A stretch of 64,000 bases of DNA from an uncultured Gammaproteobacteria bacterium. Its GTDB lineage: Bacteria > Patescibacteriota > Patescibacteriia > UBA11705 > DATKZF01. A program made the translations under genes and the position numbers. The stretch spans positions 13,093 to 77,092 of the forward strand of contig CAYPKD010000004.1 of NCBI GenBank assembly GCA_964411255.1, given 5' to 3'. Below the pieces are notes generated by a model, which had not been told where the DNA came from, made no database searches, and worked only from the letters and a program-made list of their open reading frames with translations. Below, piece after piece: positions 8,049 through 62,134 of the stretch; positions within the stretch are counted from its first letter, which is position 1, and each line of letters opens with the position of its first letter.

Positions 8049-8056
8049 TATCAAGT

Positions 8057-9508: not shown

Positions 9509-9516
9509 TATCAAGT

Positions 9517-25691: not shown

Positions 25692-26227
25692 AAATTAATT
25701 TCAGCTAGTTTAGTGTAAATTGGTCCATTTGAGGTAAGTTCACTGCAAAATAAATAGAATTTTTCAGTTTTAAATTCAGAAATGTTTATTGAATTTATTG
25801 TCTTAAATTTACTGTTCAAATATTTTATACGGCCTAATGTAAGGTGTGCTGAAAAAGGCTTTTTTTCATATTCAATGTCTATTGAATTAAGCTGTTGTCT
25901 GATCATTGAGTTTAGTCTTTTTAGATTTCCATTCTTATCTCTTAAAGAAATTTTTATAACCTTTGGATTAAAAACATTAGGGAAAAAGCTTATCTTATTG
26001 TCAAAACCAATAGTAAAATGATTAGATTCAATATTATTTAAAGCTTTTGATAATTCCCCTGCTCTATTAGTTTCAATGTCACCAATAAATTGCAAAGTTA
26101 AATGCATGTTATTAATATTAACCCATTTTATATCCTGATCTGAATTCGCTTTTTTTAGCTTTGTTAAATATTGATCAATTTCAGATTTTATTTTTTTTGG
26201 AATTTTAATGGCAATAAAGCATCTCAT
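25688..26227 (-). CDS. thpR: RNA 2',3'-cyclic phosphodiesterase (2H family, LigT/ThpR-like)
   Basis: Two H-x-T-x motifs (HLTLQF and HLTLGR) at typical spacing. About 180 aa. Confidence 0.8.
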   Translation of the reverse strand: MRCFIAIKIPKKIKSEIDQYLTKLKKANSDQDIKWVNINNMHLTLQFIGDIETNRAGELSKALNNIESNHFTIGFDNKISFFPNVFNPKVIKISLRDKNGNLKRLNSMIRQQLNSIDIEYEKKPFSAHLTLGRIKYLNSKFKTINSINISEFKTEKFYLFCSELTSNGPIYTKLAEINL

Positions 26228-33424: not shown

Positions 33425-33497
33425 TAAATTTATTCTTGTAACTTGTAATATATATTTTGTATCATAAATTTGATATATGTTACATGATATATGATAC

Positions 33498-39672: not shown

Positions 39673-41748
39673 TTATCTAAGCCAATCGTCAACCTGATCA
39701 TCTGTCGGGCTTGGCACAGGTGGCAATGGCGGATGATATTTTATTGAGTCTAATTTGTTCAGAATATCCAGCTCTTGATTTAATTCATTATCCCCTATTT
39801 TATCCATTTCATTTTGGAAATATTTTGCAAAATCTTCAAAAATGTCTACATAATGTTCAGAAACAACAAGCTCCAATGACTGTCGCTCCCATTGGCCAAG
39901 CTCATATGGCCATGGCGCAATTAATCCAATTTCCTCAGTTACCCGGAAATCCATTACTTCTGGTTCTGGCATTCTGCCTGATGTCATGCCGCTATAATAT
40001 TCTCTTTCATCAATTATCCAATTTTTTATTAAATCAGCATATCTTGAAAGTAAAATACCTTTTTGAATTCCATTGTTTTGATAATAATCAGATTTTTTAT
40101 TTTCAAAATCAATCTTTTTTTCATCAGAATCTTTTTTTCCAGATCTGTCTTCATACGTTGTCTTTAATACAAGTTTACCATTATCTGATGTTTTTTTAAG
40201 TTTTAATAGTACAATTCCACCTTTGGTCTCTCCTTCCTTTGTTTTTGAAGGAAACAAAGTATTTACTTTCATAATTTCTCCGGTAGCTTCATCTGCTTCA
40301 GGTGATCCATAAACTTTTTCAATATCATAACCGTCAGCTTCTAATATTAAATTTAGATCAAAGACCAGTGGCGTAACCATAAATTCAAATTCATCATCCA
40401 TTCTGGTTTTGAATTCATCTTCTGAATGAACAGAATAATAATTTGCTCCTCTGATTTTGGTTAAAGATTCAACAAGATCAGTATTAAAATCAACTCCAAT
40501 TCCAATAAATGTGGTATAAAGGCTATCTTCTGAATTGTTTTCCAGCTGTGAAAATAACCCGCCTCTGGTTGTATCTCCCAAGTTTGGCATTGCATCAGTT
40601 AAAAATATTATTCTATTCTCATATTCATCAGGATTCAATGCCCCTAGCTCATCAAAAAGCTCTGTGCCCTCTTTCATCCCAGCTTCCATATTTGTGCCGC
40701 CCATTGGTTGAATTTTTAAAATATGATCTTCAATTGCATTCATGTCAGTATTACCAACATAATTGAGCGGCTTGGCAAGATATCCATTATCGTCAAAAAG
40801 CACCATCCCAAACCTGTCTTCATCATTTAAATGGTCAAGCAAGGCAACAACAGATTCATTAGCAATTTCCATTTTAGTTTTGTCTGATTCTTTTAAATTC
40901 TCCCTTTCAAGCTGATTGCCAAACTGATCATAATAATATTTATTGAATTGAGAGCTCATTGATCCTGAAATGTCCAACACAATCACCAGGTTAAGCTTTT
41001 TGCGCTCAAAATCGCTTTCCTTTAGGTTTGAATTTAAACCGACTGCTAGATAGTAATCATCTTTATTTGAAATAGGATCTTTAGAAATTGCATATGAATA
41101 GGACGGGCAAAATAATTTTTCGCATTCTTGAGCTTTGCCAGTATCAAAATAATAGTCATAAAACAGGCCTTCATAAGTTATATCAGTTGGCAATGGCAAA
41201 AAATTATTTTTAATATTTTCTCTAAAATTATTAATATCTTTTGCTCCGCCAACAGCAAAACCAATGCTATCATCACCTGCTCCTCCCATTCCATCAGCAG
41301 GAGCCAGACTGGTTTCCAATGCCATATTTTTCATACTTGGTACGCCAGCTTTTTGAGACAAGCTTCTGAAAAATCCAGCATCTTCTTCTTCCTTAGAATA
41401 ATCAAATGTCCAGTCATCCACTTTTTCAACCTGAACAAATACTGGTGGTTCGCCTTGTATATATGTTTTATAAAAATACGGGCCCCCAAAGGCCAGAAGC
41501 AAGATAATTGCTGTAGCGCCTGAAAATGCAAATATCCAGCGCCGCAATTTTTTTAATTGCGCTTTTTTTTCACTGCCCTTTGCTTTTACTTTTAGTTTCT
41601 TTTGCAAATCATTTACAAATTGCTTTGATATTACAATGTTTGGCTTGTTTTTGAGCATTTCTTTTAGCATTTTATTTAATTTTGCCTCATGTTTTTTCAT
41701 AGTGGGATCGATTTTGTAGATTTCTTTTAGTATTTTGTTGATGTTCAT
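39673..41748 (-). CDS. membrane-anchored von Willebrand factor A (VWA) domain protein; candidate anti-sigma factor partner of the upstream ECF sigma
   Basis: About 75-aa cytoplasmic N-terminus and a single TM (WIFAFSGATAIILLLAFGG). Extracytoplasmic VWA with MIDAS DISGSMSS. Gene immediately downstream of and co-directional with the ECF sigma gene. Confidence 0.65.
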   Translation of the reverse strand: MNINKILKEIYKIDPTMKKHEAKLNKMLKEMLKNKPNIVISKQFVNDLQKKLKVKAKGSEKKAQLKKLRRWIFAFSGATAIILLLAFGGPYFYKTYIQGEPPVFVQVEKVDDWTFDYSKEEEDAGFFRSLSQKAGVPSMKNMALETSLAPADGMGGAGDDSIGFAVGGAKDINNFRENIKNNFLPLPTDITYEGLFYDYYFDTGKAQECEKLFCPSYSYAISKDPISNKDDYYLAVGLNSNLKESDFERKKLNLVIVLDISGSMSSQFNKYYYDQFGNQLERENLKESDKTKMEIANESVVALLDHLNDEDRFGMVLFDDNGYLAKPLNYVGNTDMNAIEDHILKIQPMGGTNMEAGMKEGTELFDELGALNPDEYENRIIFLTDAMPNLGDTTRGGLFSQLENNSEDSLYTTFIGIGVDFNTDLVESLTKIRGANYYSVHSEDEFKTRMDDEFEFMVTPLVFDLNLILEADGYDIEKVYGSPEADEATGEIMKVNTLFPSKTKEGETKGGIVLLKLKKTSDNGKLVLKTTYEDRSGKKDSDEKKIDFENKKSDYYQNNGIQKGILLSRYADLIKNWIIDEREYYSGMTSGRMPEPEVMDFRVTEEIGLIAPWPYELGQWERQSLELVVSEHYVDIFEDFAKYFQNEMDKIGDNELNQELDILNKLDSIKYHPPLPPVPSPTDDQVDDWLR

Positions 41749-41803
41749 ATAATTATTTTTTTTAGAGAAATGCGAAAGGCGATATGCGACGAGTTTATTT
41801 TAT

Positions 41804-41868
41804 GCTGCTGCCTGAACTGTCATTCCTGCGTAGGCAGGAATCCAAGTTTAAAAGTGCAGCAGTATTTT
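41804..41868 (+). repeat. GC-rich hairpin repeat element, copy 2 (GCTGCTGCCTGAACTGTCATTCC-TGCGTAGGCA-GGAAT..GCAGCAGT)
   Basis: Shares CTGAAC(T)GTCATTCC plus palindromic GC hairpin architecture with copy 1. Outer arms GCTGCTGC / GCAGCAG are complementary. Confidence 0.5.
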
Positions 41869-41888: not shown

Positions 41889-42449
41889 TCACTTTATTAG
41901 ATTAATAATTTGGCCAAATATTATTATTAATAAAATATTATCTTTTAATTTTTGTGCAGACCTTGAAAAACTAACTTTACATGCATTTTCTGATTTGCCA
42001 ATTATTGACGCAATTTCTTTATATGACAGCCCTTCCCATACTCGTAGAATTACAATTTCCCTTTGCTCTGGGGTTAATGTTTTTAAATACTTTTTCACTT
42101 CTTCTATTTTTAAATTATTACCAATTGTAGTCTCTAAATGATTTGAATCAGCAATTGACCAGAAATCTTCAATGTTTGAATTTGTTTTTTGAGTCCGATA
42201 ATGATCGATAACTGTGTTTCTGGCAATATTAAATAGCCATGTCTGAAATTTTGATTTTGAATCATCAAATTTTTCTAAATTATCCAAAGCTTTAAAAAAC
42301 ACTGTACTGGTCAAATCTTCAGCACTTTCTTTGTGCATTGTTTTGTAAAATACAAATTTGTATATTTTTTCAATGTATTTTTTGTACAATTTATCAAAAG
42401 CTTTTGAATTCCCGTCTAAATACTTTTGAATATAGAATGAATCATTCAT
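41889..42449 (-). CDS. ECF-type RNA polymerase sigma-70 family factor
   Basis: Region 2 (..FQTWLFNIARNTVIDHYR..) and region 4 HTH (..LSYKEIASIIGKSENACKVSFSRSAQKLK..). 186 aa. Confidence 0.85.
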   Translation of the reverse strand: MNDSFYIQKYLDGNSKAFDKLYKKYIEKIYKFVFYKTMHKESAEDLTSTVFFKALDNLEKFDDSKSKFQTWLFNIARNTVIDHYRTQKTNSNIEDFWSIADSNHLETTIGNNLKIEEVKKYLKTLTPEQREIVILRVWEGLSYKEIASIIGKSENACKVSFSRSAQKLKDNILLIIIFGQIINLIK

Positions 42450-48577: not shown

Positions 48578-49560
48578 ATTAATTGAGCTTGGTTATTTTC
48601 ATCATTGTCTTCATGCTTGCCTAAATAAATTTGTGTACCTTCAAGGCCAAACTGCTTGTCTGAAAATTGTTCTGGCGTATTAACGCCTAATTCATAGGCT
48701 TTAGCCGCAATGTTTGTTTTTGATGAAAGTTCATCTAAATAATTTAAAACTACTGCTTCTAAAAGCTGGGGTTTTACTGGACTTCCAAATTCCAGTTTGC
48801 CATGATGGCTTAAAATTAAGTGTAAAACCTTATCTTTTAATTCTTCTGGAAAATCTTTAATTTTATCCATTTCTTTTGCCACCTTGATAGTGCCAATTGG
48901 AATATGACCGACAAATTTGCCTTTTAAGGTCTGGAAAATCCTGGAATTGGTCTCCAGCTCATCAATTTTTCCAATATCATGAAGCAAAATTCCGGTAATC
49001 AGCAAATCTTTATTTATATTTGGATAATCCTTTAGCACAGGCTCAGCATAACCAAGCATTTCACTCACATGCTCCAGCAATCCGCCAACATATGCATGAT
49101 GAATCACTTTTGCGCCTGGAGCCTGCTTGAATTTTTCAGAAAATTCTTCATCTTTATAAAATTGATTAAGCAATGATTTTAAATGTTTATTTTGCATGCC
49201 TGATATATTTTTCTCAATAATTTTAAACATTTTATCAATGTCTTTTGATGTTTGTTGTAAAAAGTCACTGATTTCATAATCCTCAGTGATTTGCATGGAT
49301 TCAATGATTAGCTGTTTTTTGCCTTTATACTCATTAACTGCTCCGGAAATTAAAACAGCATCACCTTCTTTAGCGCTTTCACAGGTGTCCAGCTTATCTT
49401 CCCAGACCTTTGCATCAATTTCACCAGTCTTATCACCCAAGGTCAAACTCCAATATTCCTTATTTGAAGAAGTCTTTAATTTTTTTTGGCTTTTCACTAA
49501 AAATGTTTGGTCAATCAGGTCCTGGCCTGTTTTCAATTCATTTACAAATATTTTTTTCAT
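48574..49560 (-). CDS. YhaM-like OB-fold plus HD-domain 3'-5' exoribonuclease / phosphohydrolase
   Basis: N-terminal OB fold (..VKSQKKLKTSSNKEYWSLTLGDKTGEIDAKVWE..). HD motifs (..HHAYVGGLLEHV.., ..ILLHDIGK..). Confidence 0.75.
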   Translation of the reverse strand: MKKIFVNELKTGQDLIDQTFLVKSQKKLKTSSNKEYWSLTLGDKTGEIDAKVWEDKLDTCESAKEGDAVLISGAVNEYKGKKQLIIESMQITEDYEISDFLQQTSKDIDKMFKIIEKNISGMQNKHLKSLLNQFYKDEEFSEKFKQAPGAKVIHHAYVGGLLEHVSEMLGYAEPVLKDYPNINKDLLITGILLHDIGKIDELETNSRIFQTLKGKFVGHIPIGTIKVAKEMDKIKDFPEELKDKVLHLILSHHGKLEFGSPVKPQLLEAVVLNYLDELSSKTNIAAKAYELGVNTPEQFSDKQFGLEGTQIYLGKHEDNDENNQAQLI

Positions 49561-49563
49561 ATT

Positions 49564-50271
49564 TTATTTTAGATCAATTTCTCCTTTAATTTTACCTTCT
49601 TTTTTACGTTTTACCAGCTCCTTTATCATTTCTGTTTCATGCTCTTTTATATATACTCTTCCCCCAACATATATATCATCTGGTATTTTTTTATTTTTTA
49701 TTGAAGTTCCGGATAAACTTAGAGATCCTTCAACTCTAAGGCTATTGGGTAAACAATCTATATTTGCGTTCACAAAAGTACAAGTTTGTGTAACATGCAA
49801 ATTAGCTGGCATCTTTTCAACAGTTGAATTTACTAATGATAAATTGCCATTAATGCGTAAATTGTTTGGTAAAAACGATAACTTCATACTTCGTAAGTTT
49901 AGATCTGATTTTGTTTTTATTACTGGTAATTCATCTAATATAAAAGCTGCATCAACATAATTTGCCGCATTTTCCTCCCAGGAATAAATCTGAATTGCCC
50001 AGCTAATTAAATGAGCTCTGGCAACTTTAACGTCTTTAATCTCCTTTTCAACTTTTTTTTCTTTTATTTTAAGCAACTCATTTTTATAATCAGTATAAAA
50101 ATTTAATGCTTCCTGCAATTCTCCAGCTTTTTCCGCAGCTACTGCTTTATCCATAATCTCACCCAGAAAGTCCTTTTCTTCTGGAGTTAAAGGTACACGC
50201 TTAACCTCAGCCCGCCGCGGGCGGACCATTTTTAATTGACTTTCTAATGATTGAGGTTCTTCTGTTTTCAT
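49564..50271 (-). CDS. paralog family member C1
   Basis: N-terminal module MKTEEPQSLESQLKMVRPRRAEVKRVPLTPEEKDFLGEIMDKAVAAEKAGELQEALNFYTDYKNELLKIKE. C-terminal LPNNLRINGNLSL / LPNSLRVEGSLSL repeats. Tail ..KKEGKIKGEIDLK. Confidence 0.8.
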   Translation of the reverse strand: MKTEEPQSLESQLKMVRPRRAEVKRVPLTPEEKDFLGEIMDKAVAAEKAGELQEALNFYTDYKNELLKIKEKKVEKEIKDVKVARAHLISWAIQIYSWEENAANYVDAAFILDELPVIKTKSDLNLRSMKLSFLPNNLRINGNLSLVNSTVEKMPANLHVTQTCTFVNANIDCLPNSLRVEGSLSLSGTSIKNKKIPDDIYVGGRVYIKEHETEMIKELVKRKKEGKIKGEIDLK

Positions 50272-50274
50272 ATT

Positions 50275-50988
50275 TTACATTTCAGTTATTACTCTACCTC
50301 TGATATTACCTTCTGATTTTAATTGGTGGGCTTTGTTAATCACTTTTTTATTGCAATTTACAAGAAAAATATCTGCTCCAACATATAATTCATCTGGCAA
50401 ATCCTGAATTGTTGAATTATTCATATCTAGATTTCCATCAACATGCATATTTTCTGGTAAAGATTCAATTTGGGCGTGATCCATAAGAACGTCTCCATTC
50501 ACATCTAAATTTGTGCCAATCCATTCTTTTACTACAGCTCTATCCAGATCCAAACGTCCATAAATTGTTATATTTGCAGGAAATTCATCGATTACCTTAG
50601 CAGCCAATTCTAAATCTCCCACAGTCTCCAGTTTAGGGAGTTTTGGTATATCAAAAATTTTGTGAGCCTTTTCCTCAAAAGTCATTTCTTCTGGTGGTGT
50701 TTTAAAGACATTTTCAACCCACTTTACCAATTTTTCTTTTGTCCAGCCTGTTTCTTCTTTTTTTTCTTTTTCCCTTGTTTCTTTAATCCTTAACAATTCA
50801 TTCTTATAATCCGTGTAAAAATTTAAGGCCGCTTGCAATTCTCCTGCCTTTTCCGCAGCCACAGCCTTATCCATAATCTCACCTAGAAAAGCCTTTTCTT
50901 CTGGAGTTAAAGGTACACGTTTAACCTCATGGCGCCGCGGGCGAGCCATTTTGAGTTGGGATTCGAGTGATTGGGCTTTTTCCTTCAT
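50275..50988 (-). CDS. paralog family member C2
   Basis: Same N-terminal module. C-terminal repeats. Tail ..KSEGNIRGRVITEM. Confidence 0.8.
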   Translation of the reverse strand: MKEKAQSLESQLKMARPRRHEVKRVPLTPEEKAFLGEIMDKAVAAEKAGELQAALNFYTDYKNELLRIKETREKEKKEETGWTKEKLVKWVENVFKTPPEEMTFEEKAHKIFDIPKLPKLETVGDLELAAKVIDEFPANITIYGRLDLDRAVVKEWIGTNLDVNGDVLMDHAQIESLPENMHVDGNLDMNNSTIQDLPDELYVGADIFLVNCNKKVINKAHQLKSEGNIRGRVITEM

Positions 50989-50991
50989 ATT

Positions 50992-51645
50992 TTATAAAAA
51001 TTTTATTTCACCTTTGATCAGACCTTTTTCCTTTAATTTATTAAATTTATCCTTCAACTCATTAAGAGTTTTAATAGTTAATCCTATATCTTCTACATAT
51101 AAATTCCCACCAATAAATATTGAATCAGGGATATGCATATTTTCAATATCATAACCTGGTATTAATAAATTTGCGCCAACATGAAAGTTTTCAGGTAAAC
51201 TTTTTATTCTTGTATTTCTCAGCGTACAGCTACCTGCAACTTTAAAATTATTCGGTAATTCTGTGGCATTTGAATCTTCTAATTTAAAATTATCTTTAGT
51301 CCTAATTTCATTAGAGTCATCATCCATACAGGTAGGATCAAGCCATTGAAATATCCATTCCATTGGATTTCCTTCAATGAATTCATCAGCCCAAGCTTCT
51401 AGATCTGCATAACCCCAGGTTTGCTCTACTTTTTCCTTTATTTTCAACAATTCATCTTTATATTCTTGATAATATTCAATTGCCTTTGCTAATTCTCCAG
51501 CCTTTTCCGCAGCCACAGCCTTATCCATTATCTCACCTAGAAAAGCCTTTTCTTCCGGAGTAAGCGGTACACGTTTAATCTCAGCGCGTTTTGGGCGGGC
51601 CATTTGGAGTTGGGATTCGAGTGATTGTTCTGGAGTATTTTGCAT
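50992..51645 (-). CDS. paralog family member C3
   Basis: Same N-terminal module. Distinct Trp-rich middle (TWGYADLEAWADEFIEGNPMEWIFQWLDP). LPNNFKVAGSCTL / LPENFHVGANLLI repeats. Tail ..KEKGLIKGEIKFL. Confidence 0.8.
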   Translation of the reverse strand: MQNTPEQSLESQLQMARPKRAEIKRVPLTPEEKAFLGEIMDKAVAAEKAGELAKAIEYYQEYKDELLKIKEKVEQTWGYADLEAWADEFIEGNPMEWIFQWLDPTCMDDDSNEIRTKDNFKLEDSNATELPNNFKVAGSCTLRNTRIKSLPENFHVGANLLIPGYDIENMHIPDSIFIGGNLYVEDIGLTIKTLNELKDKFNKLKEKGLIKGEIKFL

Positions 51646-51650
51646 AGTTC

Positions 51651-52352
51651 TTATGTTATTTTAATATCACCCTTGATATCGCCCTGCTTTTTAAATTTCT
51701 CTATTTCTTTTACCATATCTGGGTCTGATTCACTTACATATACTTCTTCTTCAACATGTAAAGATTCAGGTTCTTTTTTATTATTTATTTCAGCTTTTGT
51801 CATATCTAAAAGACCTCCAATAATCATGGTTTTTGGTAATTGATTAATTTTTACAAATCTTAAAATACAATTTTCATTCGTATATAAAGCATTTGGCATT
51901 TTCTTAATAGTACAGTTGGTTGAAACAAAGCTCCCATTAACATGTAAAACGTTTGGCAAATCCTCAAGTATCATATTATTAAAGGTCATATTTCCTTTTG
52001 TTTGAATTATAGGTAATTCATCTAATACAAAATTTGCCTCTACATATCTCTCAGCTCTTTGTGTTGATAATCCTAGATTTCTTATAGCCCAATGAATTAA
52101 ATCTTGCTCAGTCCATTCCTTTTCTTCCTCTTCTTTTCTTTCTTTTATTTTTAGCAATTCATTCTTATAATCAGTATATAAATCCAAAGCTTCCTGCAAT
52201 TCCCCAGCCTTTTCCGCAGCCACAGCCTTATCCATAATTTTTCCTAAAAATTCCTTCTCTTCTGGTGTTAAAGGAACACGCTTAACCTCAGCACGCTTTG
52301 GCCGGGCCATTTTGAGTTGGGATTCTAAGGATTGTGGTTGTTCTTTTGGCAT
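51651..52352 (-). CDS. paralog family member C4
   Basis: Same N-terminal module. Tail ..KKQGDIKGDIKIT. Confidence 0.8.
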   Translation of the reverse strand: MPKEQPQSLESQLKMARPKRAEVKRVPLTPEEKEFLGKIMDKAVAAEKAGELQEALDLYTDYKNELLKIKERKEEEEKEWTEQDLIHWAIRNLGLSTQRAERYVEANFVLDELPIIQTKGNMTFNNMILEDLPNVLHVNGSFVSTNCTIKKMPNALYTNENCILRFVKINQLPKTMIIGGLLDMTKAEINNKKEPESLHVEEEVYVSESDPDMVKEIEKFKKQGDIKGDIKIT

Positions 52353-52380
52353 AAAGTCATTAGATATTTATCATTGTTCA

Positions 52381-52542
52381 TTAGGGTTTAAAATAGGGCC
52401 GCTGCTTTGGATTACGCAAAACTAACAGAAAGATTTCTCCATTCCGTCCGCCCTTGGCGGACTTCAGTCGAAATGACAAGCGAGGGCAGCGAGCCATTTG
52501 GAGTTGGGATTTGGGTAATTGTGGCTTTTCTTTTATGTTCAT
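52381..52542 (-). pseudogene. truncated paralog remnant: first 18 codons of a family gene (MNIKEKPQLPKSQLQMAR) fused to a copy of the hairpin repeat element
   Basis: Reverse-strand translation matches the family N-terminus up to QMAR and then reads into the repeat element (52385-52500, reverse orientation; about 85% identity to copy 1). Confidence 0.6.
52385..52500 (-). repeat. GC-rich hairpin repeat element, copy 3 (inside the truncated paralog)
   Basis: Reverse complement reads CGCTGCCCTCGCTTGTCATTTCGACTGAAGTCCGCCAAGGGCGGACGGAATGGAGAAATCTTTCTGTTAGTTTTGCGTAATCCAAAGCAGCGG. Collinear with copy 1, including the palindromic hairpin and the TAGTTTTG..CCAAAGC(A/T)GCGG tail. Confidence 0.55.
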
Positions 52543-52548
52543 ACGAAT

Positions 52549-53256
52549 TTAATTCTTCCAAATAATTTCTCCAATGATTTTCCCTTCACCTTTTAATTTA
52601 TTTAATAGGTCCATAACATTTCCATGAATTGGTTTATTCAAATACACATTGCCTCCAATGAAAATTGTATCTGATATTTTATTATCAATAAAAACTATGT
52701 CATCTAATATTAAATCTCCACTAATATTTAATAGGGCTGGTATTGTATCAATATTGGCTTTTTGTATTAATAAATTCTTATCAACAGTTAATGTCTGAGG
52801 CATTTTTTTAATGATACCTTGTATGGTCATAGATCCTTTTACATGAATATTTTCAGGTATCGTTTCTATATTGACATGTGAAGATAAATCTAAGTCTTTC
52901 TTGGCAATTATTTTGGGATATTCTTCAAAATCAAAATGCTCATCTACCCAGCTTTCACAATCTCTGGCAATTTCATGTTGTTTTGCCCATTCTATAAGAT
53001 CATTTCTTTGCTGCAGTCGTAAAGATTGCTCTTTTTCTAATCGTTCTTTAATCTTCAATAATTCATTCTTATATTCTGTATACAAATCCAAAGATTTTTG
53101 CAATTCCCCGGCCTTTTCCGCAGCCACAGCCTTATCCATAATGTCGCCTAAAAATTCTTTTTCCTCAGGTGTCAATGGTACACGCTTAACCTCAGCACGC
53201 TTTGGCCGGGCCATTTTAAGTTGATTTTCTAATGATTGCGGCTGTTCTTTCTTCAT
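52549..53256 (-). CDS. paralog family member C5 (track ORF extends to 53319; family-consistent start MKKEQPQSLENQLKMARP at 53256)
   Basis: Same N-terminal module. Start lies 1 nt after the AMMECR1 stop. Tail ..KGEGKIIGEIIWKN. Confidence 0.75.
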   Translation of the reverse strand: MKKEQPQSLENQLKMARPKRAEVKRVPLTPEEKEFLGDIMDKAVAAEKAGELQKSLDLYTEYKNELLKIKERLEKEQSLRLQQRNDLIEWAKQHEIARDCESWVDEHFDFEEYPKIIAKKDLDLSSHVNIETIPENIHVKGSMTIQGIIKKMPQTLTVDKNLLIQKANIDTIPALLNISGDLILDDIVFIDNKISDTIFIGGNVYLNKPIHGNVMDLLNKLKGEGKIIGEIIWKN

Positions 53257-54314: not shown

Positions 54315-55336
54315 AAAATCAACATAGAATCTCCAAAACTATAAAATCTATACCCTTTCTGAATTGCCTTATTATAAATGCTCAATATTTTTGCTCGGCC
54401 TGTTAATGCGGCGATTAGCATAATTAATGAACTCTTTGGTAAATGAAAATTTGTGATAATTCCGTCAATAGTTTTGAATTTATATGATGGATAAATGAAG
54501 ATATCTACTTTGCCTTTCCATGCCTTTTTTATTTGCTTTTGGCCAATAGCTCCTTCCAAAACTCTGGCTGAGGTTGTGCCCACAGCAATAATTCGTCTGC
54601 CTTGTTTTTTTGCTTTTAATAATTTTTCTAAATTTGTTTTATTAATTTCAATACTTTCAGAATGAAGTTTATGTTTTTCTATATCTTCAGATCGTACAGG
54701 TGCAAAGGTTCCCAATCCTACATGTAAAGTTACAAAAGCAGTTTCAATGCCTTTTTTGTTTAATTTATTTAACACTTTTTTTGTAAAATGAAGACCAGCG
54801 GTAGGGGCGGCTGATGAACCAAATTGTTTCGCATATATTGTTTGATATTGTTTTTTAAGTTTTGCCTGCTTTTCATTTGATTTTATATAAGGCGGAAGCG
54901 GTACTAAACCTATTTTTTCGATAATTTTATAAAAATCTCCTGAATATTTGAACTTAACCTGCCATTCCATATCACTTATTCTATTTACTAACTCTGCCTC
55001 AAGTTTATCAGAAAATATTACTTTCATTCCTTTTTTCTTATTTTTTACTCCAACCAAAGCCTTCCAAGTCTTGTTTTCAATCTGTTCAAGCAGCAGAACC
55101 TCTACTTTGCCCCCTGTGAGCTTTTTACCAATCAATCTGGCTGGATATACTTTTGAATCATTAAAAACCAGCAGATCCCCTTTCTGTAAATATTTATCAA
55201 TATTAAAAAATTTATCATGAATAATCTTGTCTCTTTGTCTATTATAAACAAGCAGCCTCGATTTATCTCGAGGATGCAATGGTTTTTGAGCAATTAGCTC
55301 TTTTGGTAAATTATAATCAAAGTCTGATAGTTTCAT
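54311..55336 (-). CDS. queA: S-adenosylmethionine:tRNA ribosyltransferase-isomerase
   Basis: N-terminus MKLSDFDYNLPKELIAQKPLHPRDKSRLLV is a near-canonical QueA start. 341 aa. Confidence 0.9.
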   Translation of the reverse strand: MKLSDFDYNLPKELIAQKPLHPRDKSRLLVYNRQRDKIIHDKFFNIDKYLQKGDLLVFNDSKVYPARLIGKKLTGGKVEVLLLEQIENKTWKALVGVKNKKKGMKVIFSDKLEAELVNRISDMEWQVKFKYSGDFYKIIEKIGLVPLPPYIKSNEKQAKLKKQYQTIYAKQFGSSAAPTAGLHFTKKVLNKLNKKGIETAFVTLHVGLGTFAPVRSEDIEKHKLHSESIEINKTNLEKLLKAKKQGRRIIAVGTTSARVLEGAIGQKQIKKAWKGKVDIFIYPSYKFKTIDGIITNFHLPKSSLIMLIAALTGRAKILSIYNKAIQKGYRFYSFGDSMLIL

Positions 55337-55337
55337 A

Positions 55338-55997
55338 TTAAAAACGTTCTTTTATACCTAAAACTCGTCCTGCTCTTAAAGCCTCTAGAGCTGATTTGAT
55401 TAAAGCTTTATTATCTGGGCTTACATAAACTTTACCGTTTACAGTATTGAATTGAGGTAATGATTTTATGTTTAAGCCCCGCAAATCTAGATCACCATTC
55501 ACCTCTAAATGTTCAGGTAATTCTATTATGTTTTTAGAATCTTTTAATGAAAGATCTCCAATAATGTATAAATTCTCAGGTAAATATTCCAAATTATCTT
55601 CATTTTCAATGCTCAATGAGCTATTAATAATAATTTTTCCTGGAAAATCCTCATCAAATTCTACTGCTGAATTCACCCAAAATTTTGCAAATGAAATGTT
55701 TGTCAAATTCGTTTTAACCCAGTCAATAAGCCCTTTCCTGGCTTTTTCAATAATTTCTTGTTTTGACATTGTTTGGCTTTCCTTTCTTTCTTTTATTTTC
55801 AGCAATTCATTCTTGTAATCAGTATAAAATCCCAAGGCCTTTTCTAATTCTCCAGCCTTTTCAGCAGCCACTGCCTTATCCATAATCTCGCCCAGAAACT
55901 TCTTTTCTTCTGGAGTCAATGGCACGCGCTTAACCTCAGCGCGCTTTGGACGGGCCATTTTGAGTTGGGATTCTAAAGATTGGGATTTTTCCGGCAT
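55338..55997 (-). CDS. paralog family member D1
   Basis: N-terminal module MPEKSQSLESQLKMARPKRAEVKRVPLTPEEKKFLGEIMDKAVAAEKAGELEKALGFYTDYKNELLKIKE. LPENLYIIGDLSL / LPEHLEVNGDLDL / LPQFNTVNGKVYV repeats. Confidence 0.8.
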   Translation of the reverse strand: MPEKSQSLESQLKMARPKRAEVKRVPLTPEEKKFLGEIMDKAVAAEKAGELEKALGFYTDYKNELLKIKERKESQTMSKQEIIEKARKGLIDWVKTNLTNISFAKFWVNSAVEFDEDFPGKIIINSSLSIENEDNLEYLPENLYIIGDLSLKDSKNIIELPEHLEVNGDLDLRGLNIKSLPQFNTVNGKVYVSPDNKALIKSALEALRAGRVLGIKERF

Positions 55998-55998
55998 A

Positions 55999-56667
55999 TT
56001 ATTTTACTTGAGTAACTTTACCTATTTGTCCTTTTTTTTCCAATTTTTTAGCTTGATCTAGCAGATCTGTATCAGTTTTTTTAATAAATATATTCATTGC
56101 TACTTTTAGATCATCTGGTAACTCTTTGATATTCGCATTTACAAGATGAAGATCTTTATTAACTACTAGGTTTCTAGGCAAATACTTAAAATCATTCCGT
56201 TCAATAATTAAAGTCCCATCAACAATTAAATGATTTGGTAATCTTTTAATATCATAAACAGCAGGATTGATTCGAAGATCACCTTTTATTTTAAGATGTG
56301 GAAGAGGGGCTGATCTGTCAAACTTCTTCTCTATCCAATTTACAGCAGCTTGTCCTGAAAATCCGACTTCATTATGTACCCAGTCTAATACCTCTTCAGG
56401 AAGATTTAAATCAAAACCCTCATCTGACTTTTTTTTCTTTTCTTGTTCTTTTTTATCTTTTATCCTTAATAATTCATTTTTATAATCAGTATACAAATTC
56501 AAAGCTTCTTGCAATTTCCCAGTTTTTTCCGCAGCTACAGCTTGATCCATTATCTTTCCGAGAAAATCCTTTTCTTCAGGAGTTAAAGGCACACGCTTAA
56601 CTTCAGCGCGCTTTGGGCGGGCCATTTTGAGTTGATTTTCTAATGATTGGGGTTGTTCTTTTGGCAT
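55999..56667 (-). CDS. paralog family member D2
   Basis: Same N-terminal module. LPNHLIVDGTLII / LPRNLVVNKDLHL / LPDDLKVAMNIFI repeats. Confidence 0.8.
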   Translation of the reverse strand: MPKEQPQSLENQLKMARPKRAEVKRVPLTPEEKDFLGKIMDQAVAAEKTGKLQEALNLYTDYKNELLRIKDKKEQEKKKKSDEGFDLNLPEEVLDWVHNEVGFSGQAAVNWIEKKFDRSAPLPHLKIKGDLRINPAVYDIKRLPNHLIVDGTLIIERNDFKYLPRNLVVNKDLHLVNANIKELPDDLKVAMNIFIKKTDTDLLDQAKKLEKKGQIGKVTQVK

Positions 56668-56675
56668 AATTAGAG

Positions 56676-58157
56676 CTAAATTTCTATTACTCTTTTTACA
56701 TATGTATTTTCATCTTTAGCAATGATATACGCCTTATTATCATTAATTGGTACAACATGGTAAATTTTATCATAATCCTCACTAACTTTTTCTCTTTTTT
56801 CATTTACCATAAACCATTTATCACCTTTTTTTGCTTTAAAAACTAGCGTTCCTTCAATATCCTCAACAGAACTAATTTTATCATATTCATCACTAATTTT
56901 TTCACCTTTTTCATTAATTAAAAATTGTTTTCCATCGTTTTCTGCATAAAAAATGATCCTACCTCCAATATCTAATGGATGCCTGACAAAATCATAGTCT
57001 TTTCCAATAATTTCACCCTTTTCATTTACAATGTATTTTTTTTTCTTGATTTTAACTTGATAAAACATAATTCCTGCAACATTGAAAATGAACTCGATTC
57101 CATCATAATCTTCACTAAGTTTTTTGCCTTTTTCATCCACGATAAACCATTTATCATCTTTTTTTGCTCCAAACACAAGTTTGCCCCCGATGTTTTTTGG
57201 AGTACCAATTTCCTCATAATCTTGTTCAAGTTCTTCCCCTTTTTCATTGACGATAAACCATTTATTATCTCTGGTTGCCGAGAAAACAATATTCCCCCCA
57301 ATATTATCCAGATATGAAATCCATTCATATCCTTTACTGATTTTTTCTCCTTTTTCATTAAATACAAACCATTCGCTACCCTGTCTGGCATGGAAAAACA
57401 TTTTATCTTCAAAAAATTGAGGAGGATCAATAGCATTATATTCTTGCCCATATTTACCTTCTTTTTCATTCACCAGAAACCATTTACTACTATTTTTTTT
57501 TGTTTCACAGGCATGAAATACACATTCTCCTTTTACATTCATTAGATTTGAAACAGATGAATAATTGCTGCCAATCTTTTCTCCTTTCTCATTTACTACA
57601 AAGTATTCATCGTTTTTCATTCCACTAATAAATAACTGCCCGGCTATATCAGTAATATGATGTATTTCATCAAACGCTGCTCCTATTCTTTCTCCCTGTT
57701 CATTAACTACAAAACTCTTCTTATCCTGTTCAACAGGAAAAAATAACCTGCCTAGGCTATGCATAGGATTATGAGCAAAGTCATAGCCTTTTCCGATCTT
57801 TCTGTCTTGCCCATAAATAACATAAAATTTGCCATCTTTTTTTGCACTAAAAGCAATTTTACCTTCTATATCTGAAGGCTCATAATATTCTTCGTACTCA
57901 TCTAAATTTATTGTATATTCCTGTTCCTTTTCTGAAATAGATTCCTTTATCTTTAACAATTCATTCTTATAGTCTGTATAAAATCCCAAAGCCTTTTCTA
58001 ATTCTCCAGCCTTTTCCGCAACTACAGCTTTTTCCATAATCTCACCTAAGAATTCTTTTTCCTCAGGTGTCAACGGTACACGTTTAACCTCAGCGCGCTT
58101 TGGACGTGCCATCTTCAATTGACTTTCAAGTGATTGTTCAGTTTGTTCTGCTTTCAT
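56676..58157 (-). CDS. paralog family member D3: N-terminal module fused to about ten WG-like (KWF-variant) beta repeats
   Basis: N-terminal module, then about 38-aa repeats DKWFIVNEKGEKISxDYDxI....IGGxLVFxAKKD. 493 aa. Confidence 0.8.
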   Translation of the reverse strand: MKAEQTEQSLESQLKMARPKRAEVKRVPLTPEEKEFLGEIMEKAVVAEKAGELEKALGFYTDYKNELLKIKESISEKEQEYTINLDEYEEYYEPSDIEGKIAFSAKKDGKFYVIYGQDRKIGKGYDFAHNPMHSLGRLFFPVEQDKKSFVVNEQGERIGAAFDEIHHITDIAGQLFISGMKNDEYFVVNEKGEKIGSNYSSVSNLMNVKGECVFHACETKKNSSKWFLVNEKEGKYGQEYNAIDPPQFFEDKMFFHARQGSEWFVFNEKGEKISKGYEWISYLDNIGGNIVFSATRDNKWFIVNEKGEELEQDYEEIGTPKNIGGKLVFGAKKDDKWFIVDEKGKKLSEDYDGIEFIFNVAGIMFYQVKIKKKKYIVNEKGEIIGKDYDFVRHPLDIGGRIIFYAENDGKQFLINEKGEKISDEYDKISSVEDIEGTLVFKAKKGDKWFMVNEKREKVSEDYDKIYHVVPINDNKAYIIAKDENTYVKRVIEI

Positions 58158-58183
58158 ATTGTTATATGATATATGTTACATGA

Positions 58184-58906
58184 TTAAAGTTTTTCAGGCA
58201 TAAATGATGCCTTTTCCGTTTTCATTAATTCTTTAATATACTTTTGTGCTTTTTTATCTTTTTTTATTGACTCTTCAAGATCCTTTTCAATCTCTGGCTT
58301 AATGTCCATCTCAAATCGTTCAAATGATTTTTCTGATAAATTTTCATCATTTAAAATTTCAATAATTTTCAAACTCTCTTCAGGTAAATTAAAAAAATCA
58401 AGCGAATTATCCTTTTCAACATTATATTTGTCAATCAATATTCTTCTAAATTTTCTCAGACCACCTATTTCAGCCATTGAATCTAAAACGAGCTCTTTTT
58501 GATTAACTACAAAATTTATTTCTTCCTGCCAATGCTGCGGGTCATCAGCCTTAGCCTTAGCCTTTGCCATTGTATATCTGCGAATTAAATAATCTAAAAT
58601 CATTTCTCTTTTATATAATGTTTTAATATTATCAATTATCTCTTCATGTTTTTTCTCCTTTATACGATTTATTTCTTTTTTCCTCTCTTCCTGCAATTTA
58701 TCGTTTATTTTCATTAATTCGTTTTTATAATCAGTATACAAATCTAGGGCTTCTTTTAGTTTCCCCGCTTTCTCTGCCGCCACTGCCTTATCCATTATCT
58801 TTCCGATAAATTCCTTTTCTTCTGGCGTTAAGGGCACACGCTTAACCTCACTCCGCCGCGAGCGGGCCATCTTCAATTGACTTTCAAGTGATTGTTCTGC
58901 TTTCAT
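58184..58906 (-). CDS. paralog family member D4: N-terminal module fused to an unrelated charged helical C-terminal region
   Basis: N-terminal module (MKAEQSLESQLKMARSRRSEVKRVPLTPEEKEFIGKIMDKAVAAEKAGKLKEALDLYTDYKNELMKI). C-terminal part lacks LP repeats. Confidence 0.75.
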   Translation of the reverse strand: MKAEQSLESQLKMARSRRSEVKRVPLTPEEKEFIGKIMDKAVAAEKAGKLKEALDLYTDYKNELMKINDKLQEERKKEINRIKEKKHEEIIDNIKTLYKREMILDYLIRRYTMAKAKAKADDPQHWQEEINFVVNQKELVLDSMAEIGGLRKFRRILIDKYNVEKDNSLDFFNLPEESLKIIEILNDENLSEKSFERFEMDIKPEIEKDLEESIKKDKKAQKYIKELMKTEKASFMPEKL

Positions 58907-58921
58907 ATTGGTTTGAGCAAG

Positions 58922-59557
58922 TTACTGTTCTTCCAATCCCTTTACTCTCCCTTCGTTTATGGCTTTTAGTACAGATTCTCTTAATTTAGTTTTTGATGCA
59001 TTACTAATAACTTTGCAATCAACTCTAATATCATCAGGCAATACTACAATATCAGTATCCAACAAATTTAAATTTCCTCTAACATGTAAATTATTGGGTA
59101 AATCGCCTAATGATGTGCCTTTTAATGAGAATTCTCCATCAATCTCTAAATTTTCAGGCATTTCAGTACAATTTTTTTTATGTTCAATTTTAATAGGACT
59201 ATCAACTATAATTTTTGGATATTTACTAAAATCAACATTAGCATCTGTCCATGATTCAATATTTGTATCTTCTATAAAAATTGATGAAAGCCATTCAATA
59301 AATTTTTGCCTGGTATTTTTTATTTTTTCAATTTGTTCCTTTTCTTCCTTTATTTTATTTAATTCATTTTTATAATCTGTATAATACCCCAAAGCCTCAG
59401 CCAATTTTCCTGCCTTTTCCGCAGCTACAGCTTTATCCATAATCTCACCTAAAAAAGCCTTTTCTTCTGGAGTTAATGGCACACGCTTAACCTCACTCCG
59501 CCGCGGGCGGGCCATTTGGAGTTGATTTTCTAATGATTGTTTTGGCTTTTCTTTCAT
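58922..59557 (-). CDS. paralog family member D5 (track ORF extends to 59596; family-consistent start MKEKPKQSLENQLQMARP at 59557)
   Basis: Same N-terminal module. LPNNLHVRGNLNL / LPDDIRVDCKVIS repeats. Confidence 0.75.
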   Translation of the reverse strand: MKEKPKQSLENQLQMARPRRSEVKRVPLTPEEKAFLGEIMDKAVAAEKAGKLAEALGYYTDYKNELNKIKEEKEQIEKIKNTRQKFIEWLSSIFIEDTNIESWTDANVDFSKYPKIIVDSPIKIEHKKNCTEMPENLEIDGEFSLKGTSLGDLPNNLHVRGNLNLLDTDIVVLPDDIRVDCKVISNASKTKLRESVLKAINEGRVKGLEEQ

Positions 59558-59599
59558 AATAAAGGTAATATATTTCCGCTGATTTGGGATATTCAATTC

Positions 59600-59672
59600 T
59601 GTTAAATAGATCTCTCGACTGCGCCCTTCACAAGCTCAGGGCTTCGCTAGAGATGACAGCTGGACAGCGGTA
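59600..59672 (-). repeat. GC-rich hairpin repeat element, degenerate copy 4 (immediately upstream of array D)
   Basis: Reverse complement CCGCTGTCCAGCTGTCATCTC-TAGCGAAGCCCTGAGCTTGTGAAGGGCGCAGTCGAGAGA. Shares the GCTG(T)CC..GTCAT head and a GC hairpin. Shares 10-11-mers with 27538-27560 and 44770-44782. Confidence 0.4.
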
Positions 59673-59678
59673 TTAAAC

Positions 59679-60158
59679 CTACTTGAGTTTATTAACCTGC
59701 TTTACAATTTCATTAATATCTAAATAATCCTCAAAGTTCTTTCCCTTATATGCCCAGACGATTTCATGATCTGGGTTTATTAAAAATAAAGCTGGTAGGC
59801 TCATTTTTTTATTATTTTTTATCTCAGTTTTCACACCAAGCAGCTCTGTTATATTAAATTCTGGATCAGGCAAAATTGGAAATTTTAATAATAAAAATGA
59901 TTTTAGCACAGCAGTGCCCATTTTATTATCATTTGAAATTGCCAAAGGCTTGGCTTTTAATTTATCTAAATTTTCGTTAAGTTTCATTAAATGTTTTCTG
60001 CACAGACCGCACCATTTGCCTCTGATAAAGGTAATCAAAACCCAGTCATCTTTTTGCCAATTATAAAAATTAAAGATACCCCCTTTAGTATCTTCAAGTT
60101 GCCAATTATTAATTTGTATATTCATATACGATTTATTCGTAACTTTAACAACAATCAT
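59679..60158 (-). CDS. thioredoxin-fold redoxin (AhpC/TSA-like; single CxxC)
   Basis: ..WVLITFIRGKWCGLCRKHL.. CxxC in thioredoxin-fold context. Confidence 0.65.
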   Translation of the reverse strand: MIVVKVTNKSYMNIQINNWQLEDTKGGIFNFYNWQKDDWVLITFIRGKWCGLCRKHLMKLNENLDKLKAKPLAISNDNKMGTAVLKSFLLLKFPILPDPEFNITELLGVKTEIKNNKKMSLPALFLINPDHEIVWAYKGKNFEDYLDINEIVKQVNKLK

Positions 60159-60304: not shown

Positions 60305-61000
60305 TTAAAAGTGACCGTTTTTATGGTTTTTTTCTATTTCAACTTCTTCTTCAATCTTTTTCTCTGCCACTTTTTTTACTTTATAAAAACCAAGCAAAGA
60401 AAACACCAATACAGCTGACACAATAATTCCAATCAAATTTGCTACAGCTGATTGAAGGGCACCAATTATAATTGCCGGATTTAGCATGCCAATACCAATT
60501 GAAATAGTGGCAAACGGCGGCAACAAAGTGACGGCAATGGCTATTCCAGGCAAAATTACAGATAATTCCTTTCTGGCCCAGGCAAAAGCAGCAGCCACGC
60601 CTGATGCAATAGCAACATAAAAAAATGTTAAATTTACAAAGCTTTTTGAACTAATCTCTTCTGTAATAACTTTTTCCGGAGCAATAATGGTCATTATCAA
60701 AGATACTATTAAAATTATGCCAATTGACTTCACAATAATTTTAATTGACCACCACATTACTTTTTTATCAACTACCACAACACCCAGAGCTAATGTTAAT
60801 AATGGCGATAAAAGCGGTGCAATCAGCATTCCACCTATTATAACCGGAACATTGTCTAAAAGCAGTCCTAAAGATACAATAACAGATGATAAAATTAACA
60901 TCAAATAAAAAGAATAAGTCAATTTACTTGATTCTATAAGTTCAGTTGCACGCTTTTTTTTCTCACGTGTTTTTGGTATTAATGTATCGTTTTTAGTCAT
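60305..61000 (-). CDS. DUF389-like integral membrane protein
   Basis: ..VIIGGMLIAPLLSPLLTLALGVVV.. Hydrophobic repeats resemble DUF389. Confidence 0.5.
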   Translation of the reverse strand: MTKNDTLIPKTREKKKRATELIESSKLTYSFYLMLILSSVIVSLGLLLDNVPVIIGGMLIAPLLSPLLTLALGVVVVDKKVMWWSIKIIVKSIGIILIVSLIMTIIAPEKVITEEISSKSFVNLTFFYVAIASGVAAAFAWARKELSVILPGIAIAVTLLPPFATISIGIGMLNPAIIIGALQSAVANLIGIIVSAVLVFSLLGFYKVKKVAEKKIEEEVEIEKNHKNGHF

Positions 61001-61020: not shown

Positions 61021-61092
61021 ATAATTACTGCGTTAGGTAATACAAAACTATTAGCAAATTCCCACCTTTGCGGGAATGACGGACAGGACAGC
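61021..61092 (-). repeat. GC-rich hairpin repeat element, copy 5
   Basis: Reverse complement GCTGTCCTGTCCGTCATTCCCGCAAAGGTGGGAATTTGCTAATAGTTTTGTATTACCTAACGCAGTAAT. Collinear with copy 1 over about 70 nt. Confidence 0.55.
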
Positions 61093-61093
61093 T

Positions 61094-62134
61094 TTATTTA
61101 TTAATAAATTCTTTTGCTAAATCAATATAATCAGAATATCCATGCTTTTTCATATAATACCACCATTCTACTCCCCAAATATAATATTTTTCAAAACCAG
61201 CTTCTTTTGCATATTCAGTATTTTCTATAAATAATTCCGGACTGAATTTTTCATATTGCTCGATTATTGGCACACTGGTAAATGGTACATTAAACCATGG
61301 TTCCATTTGAAATTCAGCAACTATTACTTTATCTACCCTTTTTTCTGCCAAATAAGCTCTTTTTGAATACCAGGCTGGGGGGCTGGCCCAGTGAAAGTCT
61401 CCAAGTAAAGGATTAGAAACATCGCGATACATTGTAATACCTAAAATATCAGCATATTTTGTAACATTCAGCCAGGTGCTTAATTCTCCAGAATCAGTAA
61501 GCATTATTTGTCTATCTGGATCAAGAGAATGAACCAAATCAATTTCATTTACAAAAATTTCTTTGTTTGGCTTTGGACATCTGCCAAATGGAAATAGCGC
61601 CTCATTTTCAACCTGCCACATATTAATAACCTTTTTATCTTTATATCTATTTACAACTGTCTCAATCATTTCTAAAAGCTCTTTTTCCTTTGTGTCATAC
61701 ATTAAATCCTGCACCCAGTCTGGTTCATAGCATTCTGGCCAGCGAAGCAATTTTCTGCCAACAGCTAATACAACCTTGCCATCTCTTTTTTCTACTTCAT
61801 TGATCATCCAATCTAATTGTTCAAAATTATATTGATTATTTTCAGGCTCAATTTCATCCCAATAAGCGGAAATCCTGACATCTGTTAATTTCAGTTCATC
61901 AAGCATGTTTATAAAAGTATTTTGCCAGTCTAAATGCAATTCCTGGGCAAATCGTGGGCTAAAAGTAACGCCCCACTCTGGATTATTATTTCTCGGCTTT
62001 TCTGGTAGTAATGAATATAAAAAAAAGAAAATTGCCAAAGCAAGTAATATGATCATTACTATTATAAATACTATAAATCTAATTTTAATTTTTTGTGGTT
62101 TTGGTTTTCTTTTTAGTTTTTTCTTTTTCACCAT
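61094..62134 (-). CDS. membrane-anchored hypothetical protein, possible glycoside-hydrolase-like TIM-barrel domain
   Basis: N-terminal basic segment plus TM. Trp-rich ectodomain (..WGVTFSP.., ..YWDEIEPENNQYNF..). Assignment weak. Confidence 0.35.
   Translation of the reverse strand: MVKKKKLKRKPKPQKIKIRFIVFIIVMIILLALAIFFFLYSLLPEKPRNNNPEWGVTFSPRFAQELHLDWQNTFINMLDELKLTDVRISAYWDEIEPENNQYNFEQLDWMINEVEKRDGKVVLAVGRKLLRWPECYEPDWVQDLMYDTKEKELLEMIETVVNRYKDKKVINMWQVENEALFPFGRCPKPNKEIFVNEIDLVHSLDPDRQIMLTDSGELSTWLNVTKYADILGITMYRDVSNPLLGDFHWASPPAWYSKRAYLAEKRVDKVIVAEFQMEPWFNVPFTSVPIIEQYEKFSPELFIENTEYAKEAGFEKYYIWGVEWWYYMKKHGYSDYIDLAKEFINK

Follow-up and report, generated by a model that had tools for sequence, protein, structure and literature searches.

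Positions 59558–59678 of the window (the whole stretch of DNA that was analysed, 64,000 nucleotides) form the spacer between a gene for an AhpC/Bcp-like protein (59679–60158, minus strand) and the first gene of array D, the start codon of which lies at 59557. The spacer contains a copy of a repeat element (c4; 59576–59671, minus strand), which was recognized from its sequence and with nhmmer (E = 7e-13). Between the element and the start codon there is an AT-rich stretch of 18 nt (AAATATATTACCTTTATT; 59558–59575, minus strand) that contains TATATT. Array D (55338–59557, minus strand) comprises five genes of one protein family; further arrays of five family genes are present at 6635–10287 (array A, plus strand) and 49564–53256 (array C, minus strand), the latter with an additional gene fragment and an element copy, c3. 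Array A is headed by copy c1, as array D is by c4. The head of array C carries no element, and its first gene, C1 (start codon at 53256), begins 1 nt past the AMMECR1 stop codon. Genes within the arrays are spaced by 3–30 nt, without the element. The arrays sit between co-directional housekeeping genes, and the next genes begin 1–3 nt past the array ends; a single nucleotide separates the last stop codon of array D (gene D5 in our numbering) from the queA start codon. Since the 3′ ends of the arrays abut the next housekeeping gene, the arrays are embedded in long co-directional transcription units. Array ends that abut or overlap the next start codon were observed at 55336–55340 and 49560–49566 in the window and at two loci outside it, L014 (11999–12006) and L020 (18483–18486).

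The family is restricted to one lineage, and its proteins are built from an invariant helical N-terminus of 70 residues and a variable β-solenoid/LRR-like C-terminus. An AlphaFold model (pLDDT 91.5) has a helical N-terminal domain and a β-solenoid/LRR-like C-terminal domain. Its likeness to PDB entries is weak (best E = 6e-3, with the LRRs of IpaH/SspH at E > 0.1), and the structure search gave no functional lead. A search of 5.8 billion clustered proteins gave only 63 homologues, and 1.84 billion cluster representatives gave only 53 clusters with the N-terminal domain. An alignment-based contig scan of the GTDB species representatives returned 79 pattern matches and no true relative. The organism has no orphan gene family more expanded than this one, of which 213 kb yielded at least 35 copies. 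The third gene of array D (56676–58157, minus strand) encodes 493 residues, and six tandem repeats of 111 nt (37 residues) in its C-terminal part replace the usual LRR-like domain; a similar long form is P0036 in L014 (460 residues).

Five copies of the element were found in the window using nhmmer and a profile built from the copies (E = 1e-9 to 1e-28); further window matches to the profile were obtained only at E > 0.1. The first profile gave four of them (E = 1e-19 to 1e-28), and copy c2 was picked up with the refined profile. The existence of the repeat, reported in an earlier note on this DNA, is thus borne out, and the number of window copies rises from the four counted there to five through copy cX (61027–61095, minus strand; E = 7e-16). 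Copy c1 (6546–6616, plus strand; E = 9e-20) starts 40 nt past the PBP2 stop codon and ends 18 nt ahead of the start codon of A1 at 6635; the end at 6620 and the gap of 15 nt given previously were inexact. For c4 the placement as such was right, but the extent given previously (59600–59672, about 45 nt from the start codon) missed the 3′ third, and the gap is 18 nt, the same distance as at c1. Both genes, A1 and the gene at 59557 (D1 here, D5 in the earlier note), have a copy directly upstream in gene orientation, as had been claimed. Copy c3 (52399–52493, minus strand; E = 5.5e-13) is a long nested hairpin 46 nt ahead of the start codon of C2 at 52352. Its head is fused to a truncated family gene start of 54 nt (52487–52542, minus strand; start codon at 52542, MNIKEKPQLPKSQLQMAR), which ends in the junction ATGGCTCGC–TGCCC. 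Where the earlier note had c3 inside a truncated paralog of array C, the copy follows the family fragment and is internal to the array. The two other copies are away from family genes. The short copy c2 (41803–41862, plus strand; E = 3.4e-9), probably copy 2 in the count of the earlier note, stands between an ECF sigma factor gene (41889–42449, minus strand) and a VWA gene (39673–41748, minus strand) and is inverted with respect to both, and cX has a GH-like gene (61094–62134) on one side and a DUF389 gene (60305–61000) on the other, 27 nt ahead of the DUF389 start codon.

The copies are 60–99 nt in length, have no ORF of their own and have a GC content of about 50%, compared with 32% in the host genome. 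Short terminal inverted repeats of 6–9 nt (CCGCTGCC...GGCAGCGG, the tail also being read as GCAGCGG) enclose the same order of parts in all copies: a head (C)CGCTG(C/T)CC, 4–8 nt, the invariant GTCAT, a GC-rich hairpin, a T-rich stretch, the block TAGTTTTG(T/A)AT and a tail CCAAAGCAGCGG that is complementary to the head. The conserved 3′ block in the copies reads TAGTTTTGTAT. The hairpin begins at the AT of GTCAT and its GC-rich core is modular, being exchanged between copies; the cores include two short forms (ATTCCCGC-GGAA-GCGGGAAT and ATTCCTGC-GCAG-GCAGGAAT), a CTCGA-GCGAAG-TCGAG form and several long nested forms. In c4 the head ACCGCTGTCC starts at 59671 and is followed by GTCAT (59657–59653), a long imperfect hairpin, TTGAAT (59596–59591) and the tail CCAAATCAGCGG, the last base of which is 59576 (all minus strand). 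Copy c1 consists of the head CCCGCTGCCC, GTCAT (6561–6565), a hairpin at 6564–6583 (ATTCCCGC GGAA GCGGGAAT), the block TAGTTTTGTAT from 6591 and the tail CCCAAAGCTGCGG (plus strand).

All copies fold into an outer stem formed by the inverted repeats and an inner hairpin; in c4, where the head pairs with the tail around the inner hairpin, the predicted energy is −26.3 kcal/mol. Standard pairs occupy 92.6% of the pair cells in an alignment of eight copies, with four pairs changed on both sides. None of 500 shuffles of this alignment matched the pairing values, and registers slid by 1–3 columns paired at 23–59%. The helix of the CCGCTG head and the CAGCGG tail is 97.7% paired in the eight copies, with two pairs changed on both sides. 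Compensatory changes thus keep both stems paired.

The element is of a known class, with MITE- or REP-type behaviour, and belongs to no named family. A search of the whole window against Rfam gave no match at the gathering thresholds, and with permissive filters the best match was FtrB (24.9 bits against a gathering score of 66). In most cases, Correia elements (CREE/NEMIS) lie just upstream of genes; a given site can carry them in either orientation, and they are reported to have outward σ70-like promoters, to invert in place and to be cut by RNase III at the paired inverted repeats (PMC10969869). The present element resembles them as a short, non-coding, palindromic MITE with terminal inverted repeats and with sites upstream of genes in both orientations. 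It differs in having no sequence similarity, no clear TA duplication and no recognized IHF box, and in its swappable GC-rich hairpin behind GTCAT, its occurrence in another phylum and its enrichment at one paralog family. A Correia element proper was rejected as an identification: the ends (CCGCTGCC) are not the 26 bp Correia repeat, and the host belongs to the Patescibacteria, not to Neisseria. In Escherichia coli REP sequences a short invariant motif, GTAG, precedes the palindrome. With REP/BIME/REPIN sequences the element shares a GC-rich imperfect palindrome behind such a motif (here GTCAT), an intergenic position between co-directional genes, compensatory stem changes and the lack of an obvious target duplication. 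Unlike them it has outer terminal inverted repeats and a conserved non-palindromic 3′ block, and it lies upstream of one family, whereas REPs are typically at gene 3′ ends. No RAYT (Y1 transposase) gene is present in the Pfam annotations of the 213 kb sampled. The SPRITE, BOX and RUP repeats of Streptococcus pneumoniae are likewise small, intergenic and able to form stable hairpins, but are unrelated in sequence, and we know of no report of an association of these with a paralog family. SPRITE resembles a rho-independent terminator (PMC10969869). A literature search found no description of MITE-like repeats in CPR/Patescibacteria.

The element also has traits of the Rickettsia palindromic elements (RPE), being a dispersed palindromic repeat of a small AT-rich genome that can be read as protein: c3 extends the family fragment in frame, and the ORF of a DUF2304 gene in L014 ends inside a copy. 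Its copies are, in contrast to RPEs, overwhelmingly intergenic. RPE1–7 were rejected, as ten element translations gave no RPE match at E values up to 10 in NCBIfam (in which the RPE models were assumed to be included); for the translations of all open frames only two irrelevant weak matches were obtained there at E up to 10. The 53-residue ORF formed by the fragment and the element gave no candidates among 5.8 billion proteins. The last ~20 codons of the DUF2304 gene of L014 (9571–9972) come from the element, and the head gene of array D can also be called as a TTG-started ORF (58922–59596) that begins in the TTGAAT of c4. ORF extensions of this kind may be an annotation risk.

For the association with the family, a non-redundant sample of 213,331 nt was analysed, which comes from the same genome or population and has 207 genes by ORF calling. 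Proteins of the window recur on contigs of several metagenomes. Overlaps were removed. Since the additional loci (L numbers) were reached via family proteins, the sample does not represent the genome at random. It holds 13 strong copies (nhmmer E = 4e-7 or better), namely the five of the window and eight elsewhere, and for nine of the 13 a family start codon follows within about 75 nt: those at A1, D1 and C2 in the window and those at L009 (9169–9238), L014 (9912–9985), L016 (8838–8936), L018 (9856–9928) and L020 (14717–14801 and 16413–16501). This is the association test that the earlier note had proposed for the whole genome, and on these 213 kb it came out positive: with paralogous heads counted singly although they are not independent events, the element is found at nine of 13 array heads and at two of 172 other genes (Fisher p = 6.6e-11, about 7e-11). 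An element within 110 nt upstream was found for nine of the 35 family genes against two of the 172 others (p = 1.9e-6), and in the window alone at three of four heads against two of 51 other genes (p = 0.0015). The link of the element with the first gene of arrays, or with singletons of the family, is real and far above chance. As a mark of the 5′ boundary of every array it fails, since only two of the three array heads in the window carry it and C1 does not; with P0027 in L012, L020 8507 and P0041 in L021 there are four heads without an element in all. Nor is the element specific to the family: four canonical copies stand at non-family genes (41803, 61027, L001 5267 and L018 4287), and related hairpins occur at GIY-YIG genes. 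The contigs of L001–L004, L011 and L012 end inside arrays; the repeats and the arrays explain the assembly breaks at these loci.

At six heads the element ends 15–18 nt upstream of the start codon. Six of the nine copies at family heads are direct and three (L016 8838–8936, L020 14717–14801 and L020 16413–16501) are inverted, so that the rule stated previously, that the element shares the orientation of the family genes, does not hold. The gene-side flank TAAATTTA is common to L014, with a direct copy, and L016, with an inverted one; along with the variety of hairpin cores at heads, this points to several independent events. The lack of a strong orientation bias argues against a strictly orientation-dependent function and favours an orientation-independent property, that is, an RNA or DNA hairpin that could form a barrier, be processed or be prone to recombination. 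A dedicated cis-regulatory 5′ leader RNA of the family (riboswitch- or attenuator-like), one of the functions first suggested for the element, would accord with the distance of 15–18 nt at six heads and with the conserved structure. The hairpin core, however, varies in sequence and length, the element is inverted at three heads and present at unrelated genes, and no Rfam family comes near its threshold; we regard a leader RNA as extremely unlikely.

A second function proposed there was that of a simple intrinsic terminator insulating the arrays from upstream operons. Every array is downstream of co-directional genes, the hairpin of c1 (8 bp, then TTCTTAATAG) was called terminator-like, and in direct copies a T-rich tract (TCTTTCTGTTAGTTTTG) follows the hairpin. 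Against this, c4 and cX were not called terminators, the hairpin of inverted copies is followed by GACG... with no T run, and the housekeeping genes that begin 1–3 nt past the array ends must be transcribed through the arrays. Simple termination is thus disfavoured as a general rule, and we consider it very unlikely as the role of the element.

On the minus strand, c4 and its spacer together give a σ70-like match, TTGAAT-18-TATATT (9/12; from 59596 to 59567). Promoter-like matches around c4 were not above chance (11 found against 9.2 expected from shuffles). With the spacing loosened to 15–19 nt, matches were found at only three of nine family heads: c4, L018b (ATGACA-15-TATAAT, 11/12, ending 62 nt before the start codon of the gene) and L016 (ATGACA-19-TACTAT). 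At c1, c3, L009 and L014 a spacer of 15 nt with weak −10 boxes was read by eye. Other genes of the organism have boxes of the TTGACA/TATAAT type, mostly without a Shine–Dalgarno sequence. A promoter of the Bacteroidetes type, the TAnnTTTG of which matches TAGTTTTG, was rejected because the window genes show TTGACA/TATAAT and the organism is a Patescibacterium. Many genes have a TATAAT-like box that ends 5–9 nt before the start codon (e.g. upstream of 25688–26227 and 34482–36353), which suggests that leaderless mRNAs or mRNAs with a very short leader may be frequent.

The reading that we prefer, tentatively and at a probability of roughly 0.45, is that 59576–59671 is one copy of a non-coding, MITE-like palindromic repeat of Correia/REP-like character that is kept at the junction of a housekeeping operon and an array as transcriptional punctuation. 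That the element persists at the junction through Correia-style punctuation is the part for which we would allow rather less than an even chance. The hairpin within the paired inverted repeats would act as a barrier or processing site that parts the upstream housekeeping message from the array. In direct copies, the T-rich tract and TTG(T/A)AT would then join the AT-rich flank (TATATT, TAAATT or TATAAT) to make an outward promoter. Such a promoter would serve the array and the housekeeping genes that abut its 3′ end, with transcripts that have no Shine–Dalgarno sequence. Correia elements set a precedent for this reading in their position ahead of genes, their promoters, their inversion in place and their cleavage by RNase III.

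Some family start codons are directly preceded by heptamer tandem repeats (TAATGAN or NAATTAC, 3–6 units), as at 52353–52398 in the window, L009 9245–9285, L014 ~11395–11435 and L016 10055–10100. Similar repeats precede other genes (TGATACA × 4.6 at 33471–33502 and TTTTTAA × 5.4 at 11593–11629). These could be slippage-prone or protein-binding tracts. A second periodic repeat, CCGAAT/ATTCGG every 8–11 nt, occupies the intergenic regions at ~720–775 in the window, L016 11192–11250 and L021 11186–11240; two of the spacers concerned are array 3′ ends.

Comparison with related genomes bears on how the element and the arrays reached their sites. Using SerRS as the query, a related genome was found, that of Patescibacteria group bacterium Betzabe_MAG187 (locus L023; SerRS 82% identical), in which the gene order HisRS-MreB-MreC-MreD-PBP2-GreA-SerRS is conserved. 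There PBP2 is followed by 84 nt and then by GreA, with neither array nor element, and these 84 nt align with the window spacer after A5, including the TTGACT box of GreA. The empty PBP2–GreA junction indicates that the 40 nt flank, c1 and array A (6506 to ~10295) form an insertion just past the PBP2 stop codon; it is the whole array that is missing from L023 along with the element. A two-gene array with an element lies inside a conserved glycosyltransferase operon at L014 (9912–12006). By these comparisons, the arrays with the element appear to be lineage-specific insertions between co-directional housekeeping genes. In the window, 10899–11438 and 12927–15572 are also missing from the syntenic locus in L023; they hold ORFs with no Pfam match, the second including a paralog pair (14363–14866 and 14970–15572) with a common 78 nt repeat at 71%. 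These segments are further lineage-specific insertions, free of the element.

No clear target-site duplication was found at the copies inspected. Possible 3 nt repeats are AAT at c1 and c4 and AGG at L020 16413, and none was seen at L014 and L018b, the element ends being ambiguous by 1–2 nt. No transposase was seen in the 213 kb sampled, and thus none with matching ends, and there was no recombinase near the element. A scan of metagenome contigs for the pattern GCTGYCY..GTCAT..TAGTTTTG.. returned only four loci, the window copies not being among them; L005 and L008, which came from this pattern scan, were rejected as chance matches.

The AMMECR1 junction differs between strains. In the related strain represented by L006, in which AMMECR1 is 88% identical at the nucleotide level, this junction holds a c1-type element, then the spacer known from c1 (identical in 17 of 18 nt) and a C2 orthologue (82%); the window strain has C1 there, without an element, and the arrays differ as well. 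Positions 581–888 of L006, the head of the orthologue of array C, match 6546–6858 of the window (element, spacer and 5′ end of A1) at 84%. It appears that the element, the spacer and the conserved 5′ coding region were copied jointly between heads by recombination and that part of the association is inheritance and not independent insertion. On a rival reading the repeat is selfish or neutral and plays no part in the expression of the arrays: array heads would be young, permissive junctions at which insertion is harmless, and the element, the spacer and the 5′ end of the gene would then be copied through the conserved 200 nt of 5′ coding region by ectopic recombination. Besides the 84% match between the head of array A and that of array C in another strain and the shared spacer, this explanation draws on the presence of both orientations, the four heads without an element, the canonical copies at unrelated sites (including L018 4287–4384, between convergent genes) and the chance level of the promoter matches; short intergenic spacers, moreover, put any insertion close to a start codon. 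It would lead one to expect the element at array 3′ junctions too, since these ought to be just as young, yet all the 3′ ends examined were free of it, against nine of 13 occupied 5′ junctions. The heads carry at least seven different hairpin cores, a variety that copying of one unit leaves unexplained; the first codons of the head genes are heterogeneous and form no single group. The cores and the codons together argue against pure co-duplication, and a single co-duplicated clade of head genes was ruled out by the heterogeneous codons. On balance a selfish or neutral repeat seems to us somewhat unlikely, though a reading to be taken seriously.

The third proposal of the earlier note, that the element is a recombination site, survives as a footprint only. 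At the junction ATGGC(C/T)CGC–TGCCC a family fragment runs into a c3-type element; this was found in the window, once in L006 and twice in L007, that is, at c3 and at three places of a related strain, and the four fragments differ further upstream. The supposed resemblance of the element head to the family motif ATGGCCCGCCC comes down to CCCGC, which is all that the two share and which occurs 41 times in the window on both strands; this microhomology of 5 nt is nonetheless the place of the actual junction at c3, which recurs in another strain. The simplest account would be that one illegitimate exchange took place at the microhomology and that homologous exchange within the conserved 5′ coding region came afterwards; recurrent targeting is a conceivable alternative. 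A decayed family start, ATGAAAGAACA(A/G)CC(C/A)C(A/G)ATCATA(G/A), which ends in a stop codon and is followed by an inter-gene spacer and a real gene, was observed past the element and a spacer of 15–17 nt at L018 9929–10000 and L007 ~890–947. It is a footprint of the deletion of a former first gene.

In a stronger form of this proposal, arrays are seeded and rearranged at the element, which would serve as a recombination or landing site. The palindrome, either fragile or recombinogenic in itself or targeted by some recombinase, would have family genes captured beside it, and recombination of its head with the invariant ATGGCCCGC motif would duplicate or move array segments. The joining of four different N-terminal fragments to c3-type elements, the two-gene array in the glycosyltransferase operon of L014, the placement of c1 and array A exactly between the PBP2 stop codon and the GreA promoter and the varying array content at the AMMECR1 junction all fit such a site. 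A common motif of just 5 nt, found 41 times in the window, speaks against it, and the different fragments are accounted for by one ancestral junction that was spread through homologous exchange within the conserved 5′ region; furthermore, the element stands at one array end only and not between cassettes, there is no recombinase nearby and four heads have no element. Integron attC sites offer a parallel in that they too form imperfect palindromes, conserved at the ends and variable in the centre, and adjoin promoterless-looking arrayed genes. They differ in that the element is present once per array head, not once per cassette, with no adjacent integrase gene, and attC was rejected as an identification because the ends read CCGCTG...CAGCGG and not RYYYAAC...GTTRRRY. 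A recombination or landing site is in our judgement improbable.

It is quite improbable, too, that the element and the ATGGCCCGC motif constitute a cassette-mobilizing system, in which the palindrome, as the recognition site of a recombinase or nuclease, would pick up family genes, start new arrays between housekeeping genes and promote the growth of the arrays. Gene families in reduced CPR genomes would in that case expand by a route not described before. At L012 (4341–4948 and 6795–7406) two small GIY-YIG genes (4450–4740 and 6919–7206) are each bracketed by GC-rich GTCAT-hairpin elements, which have inverted repeats of their own (GCAGCCGCG... and CACCGACA...); one of these ends 7 nt before a GIY-YIG start codon. 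The flanking hairpins may represent a related element family or a clue to the mobilizer, and the GIY-YIG genes themselves are a speculative lead to a mobilizing enzyme.

Patescibacteria have very small, compact genomes, and in this one the repeat is tied to the most expanded orphan family of the organism. Should the element provide promoters or sites of RNA processing, as in the preferred reading of transcriptional punctuation, it would illustrate how newly inserted arrays become connected to operons already in place; a recombinogenic element would help to account for the spread of the family. Elsewhere in the window, an ORF of 472 residues (22294–23712, plus strand) has a GC content of about 55%, compared with 32% in the genome, and no Pfam match. 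Unlike most window genes, it is preceded by a TTGACT...TATAAT-like promoter of its own and by a GGAGGA ribosome-binding site, and it is probably a recent horizontal acquisition.
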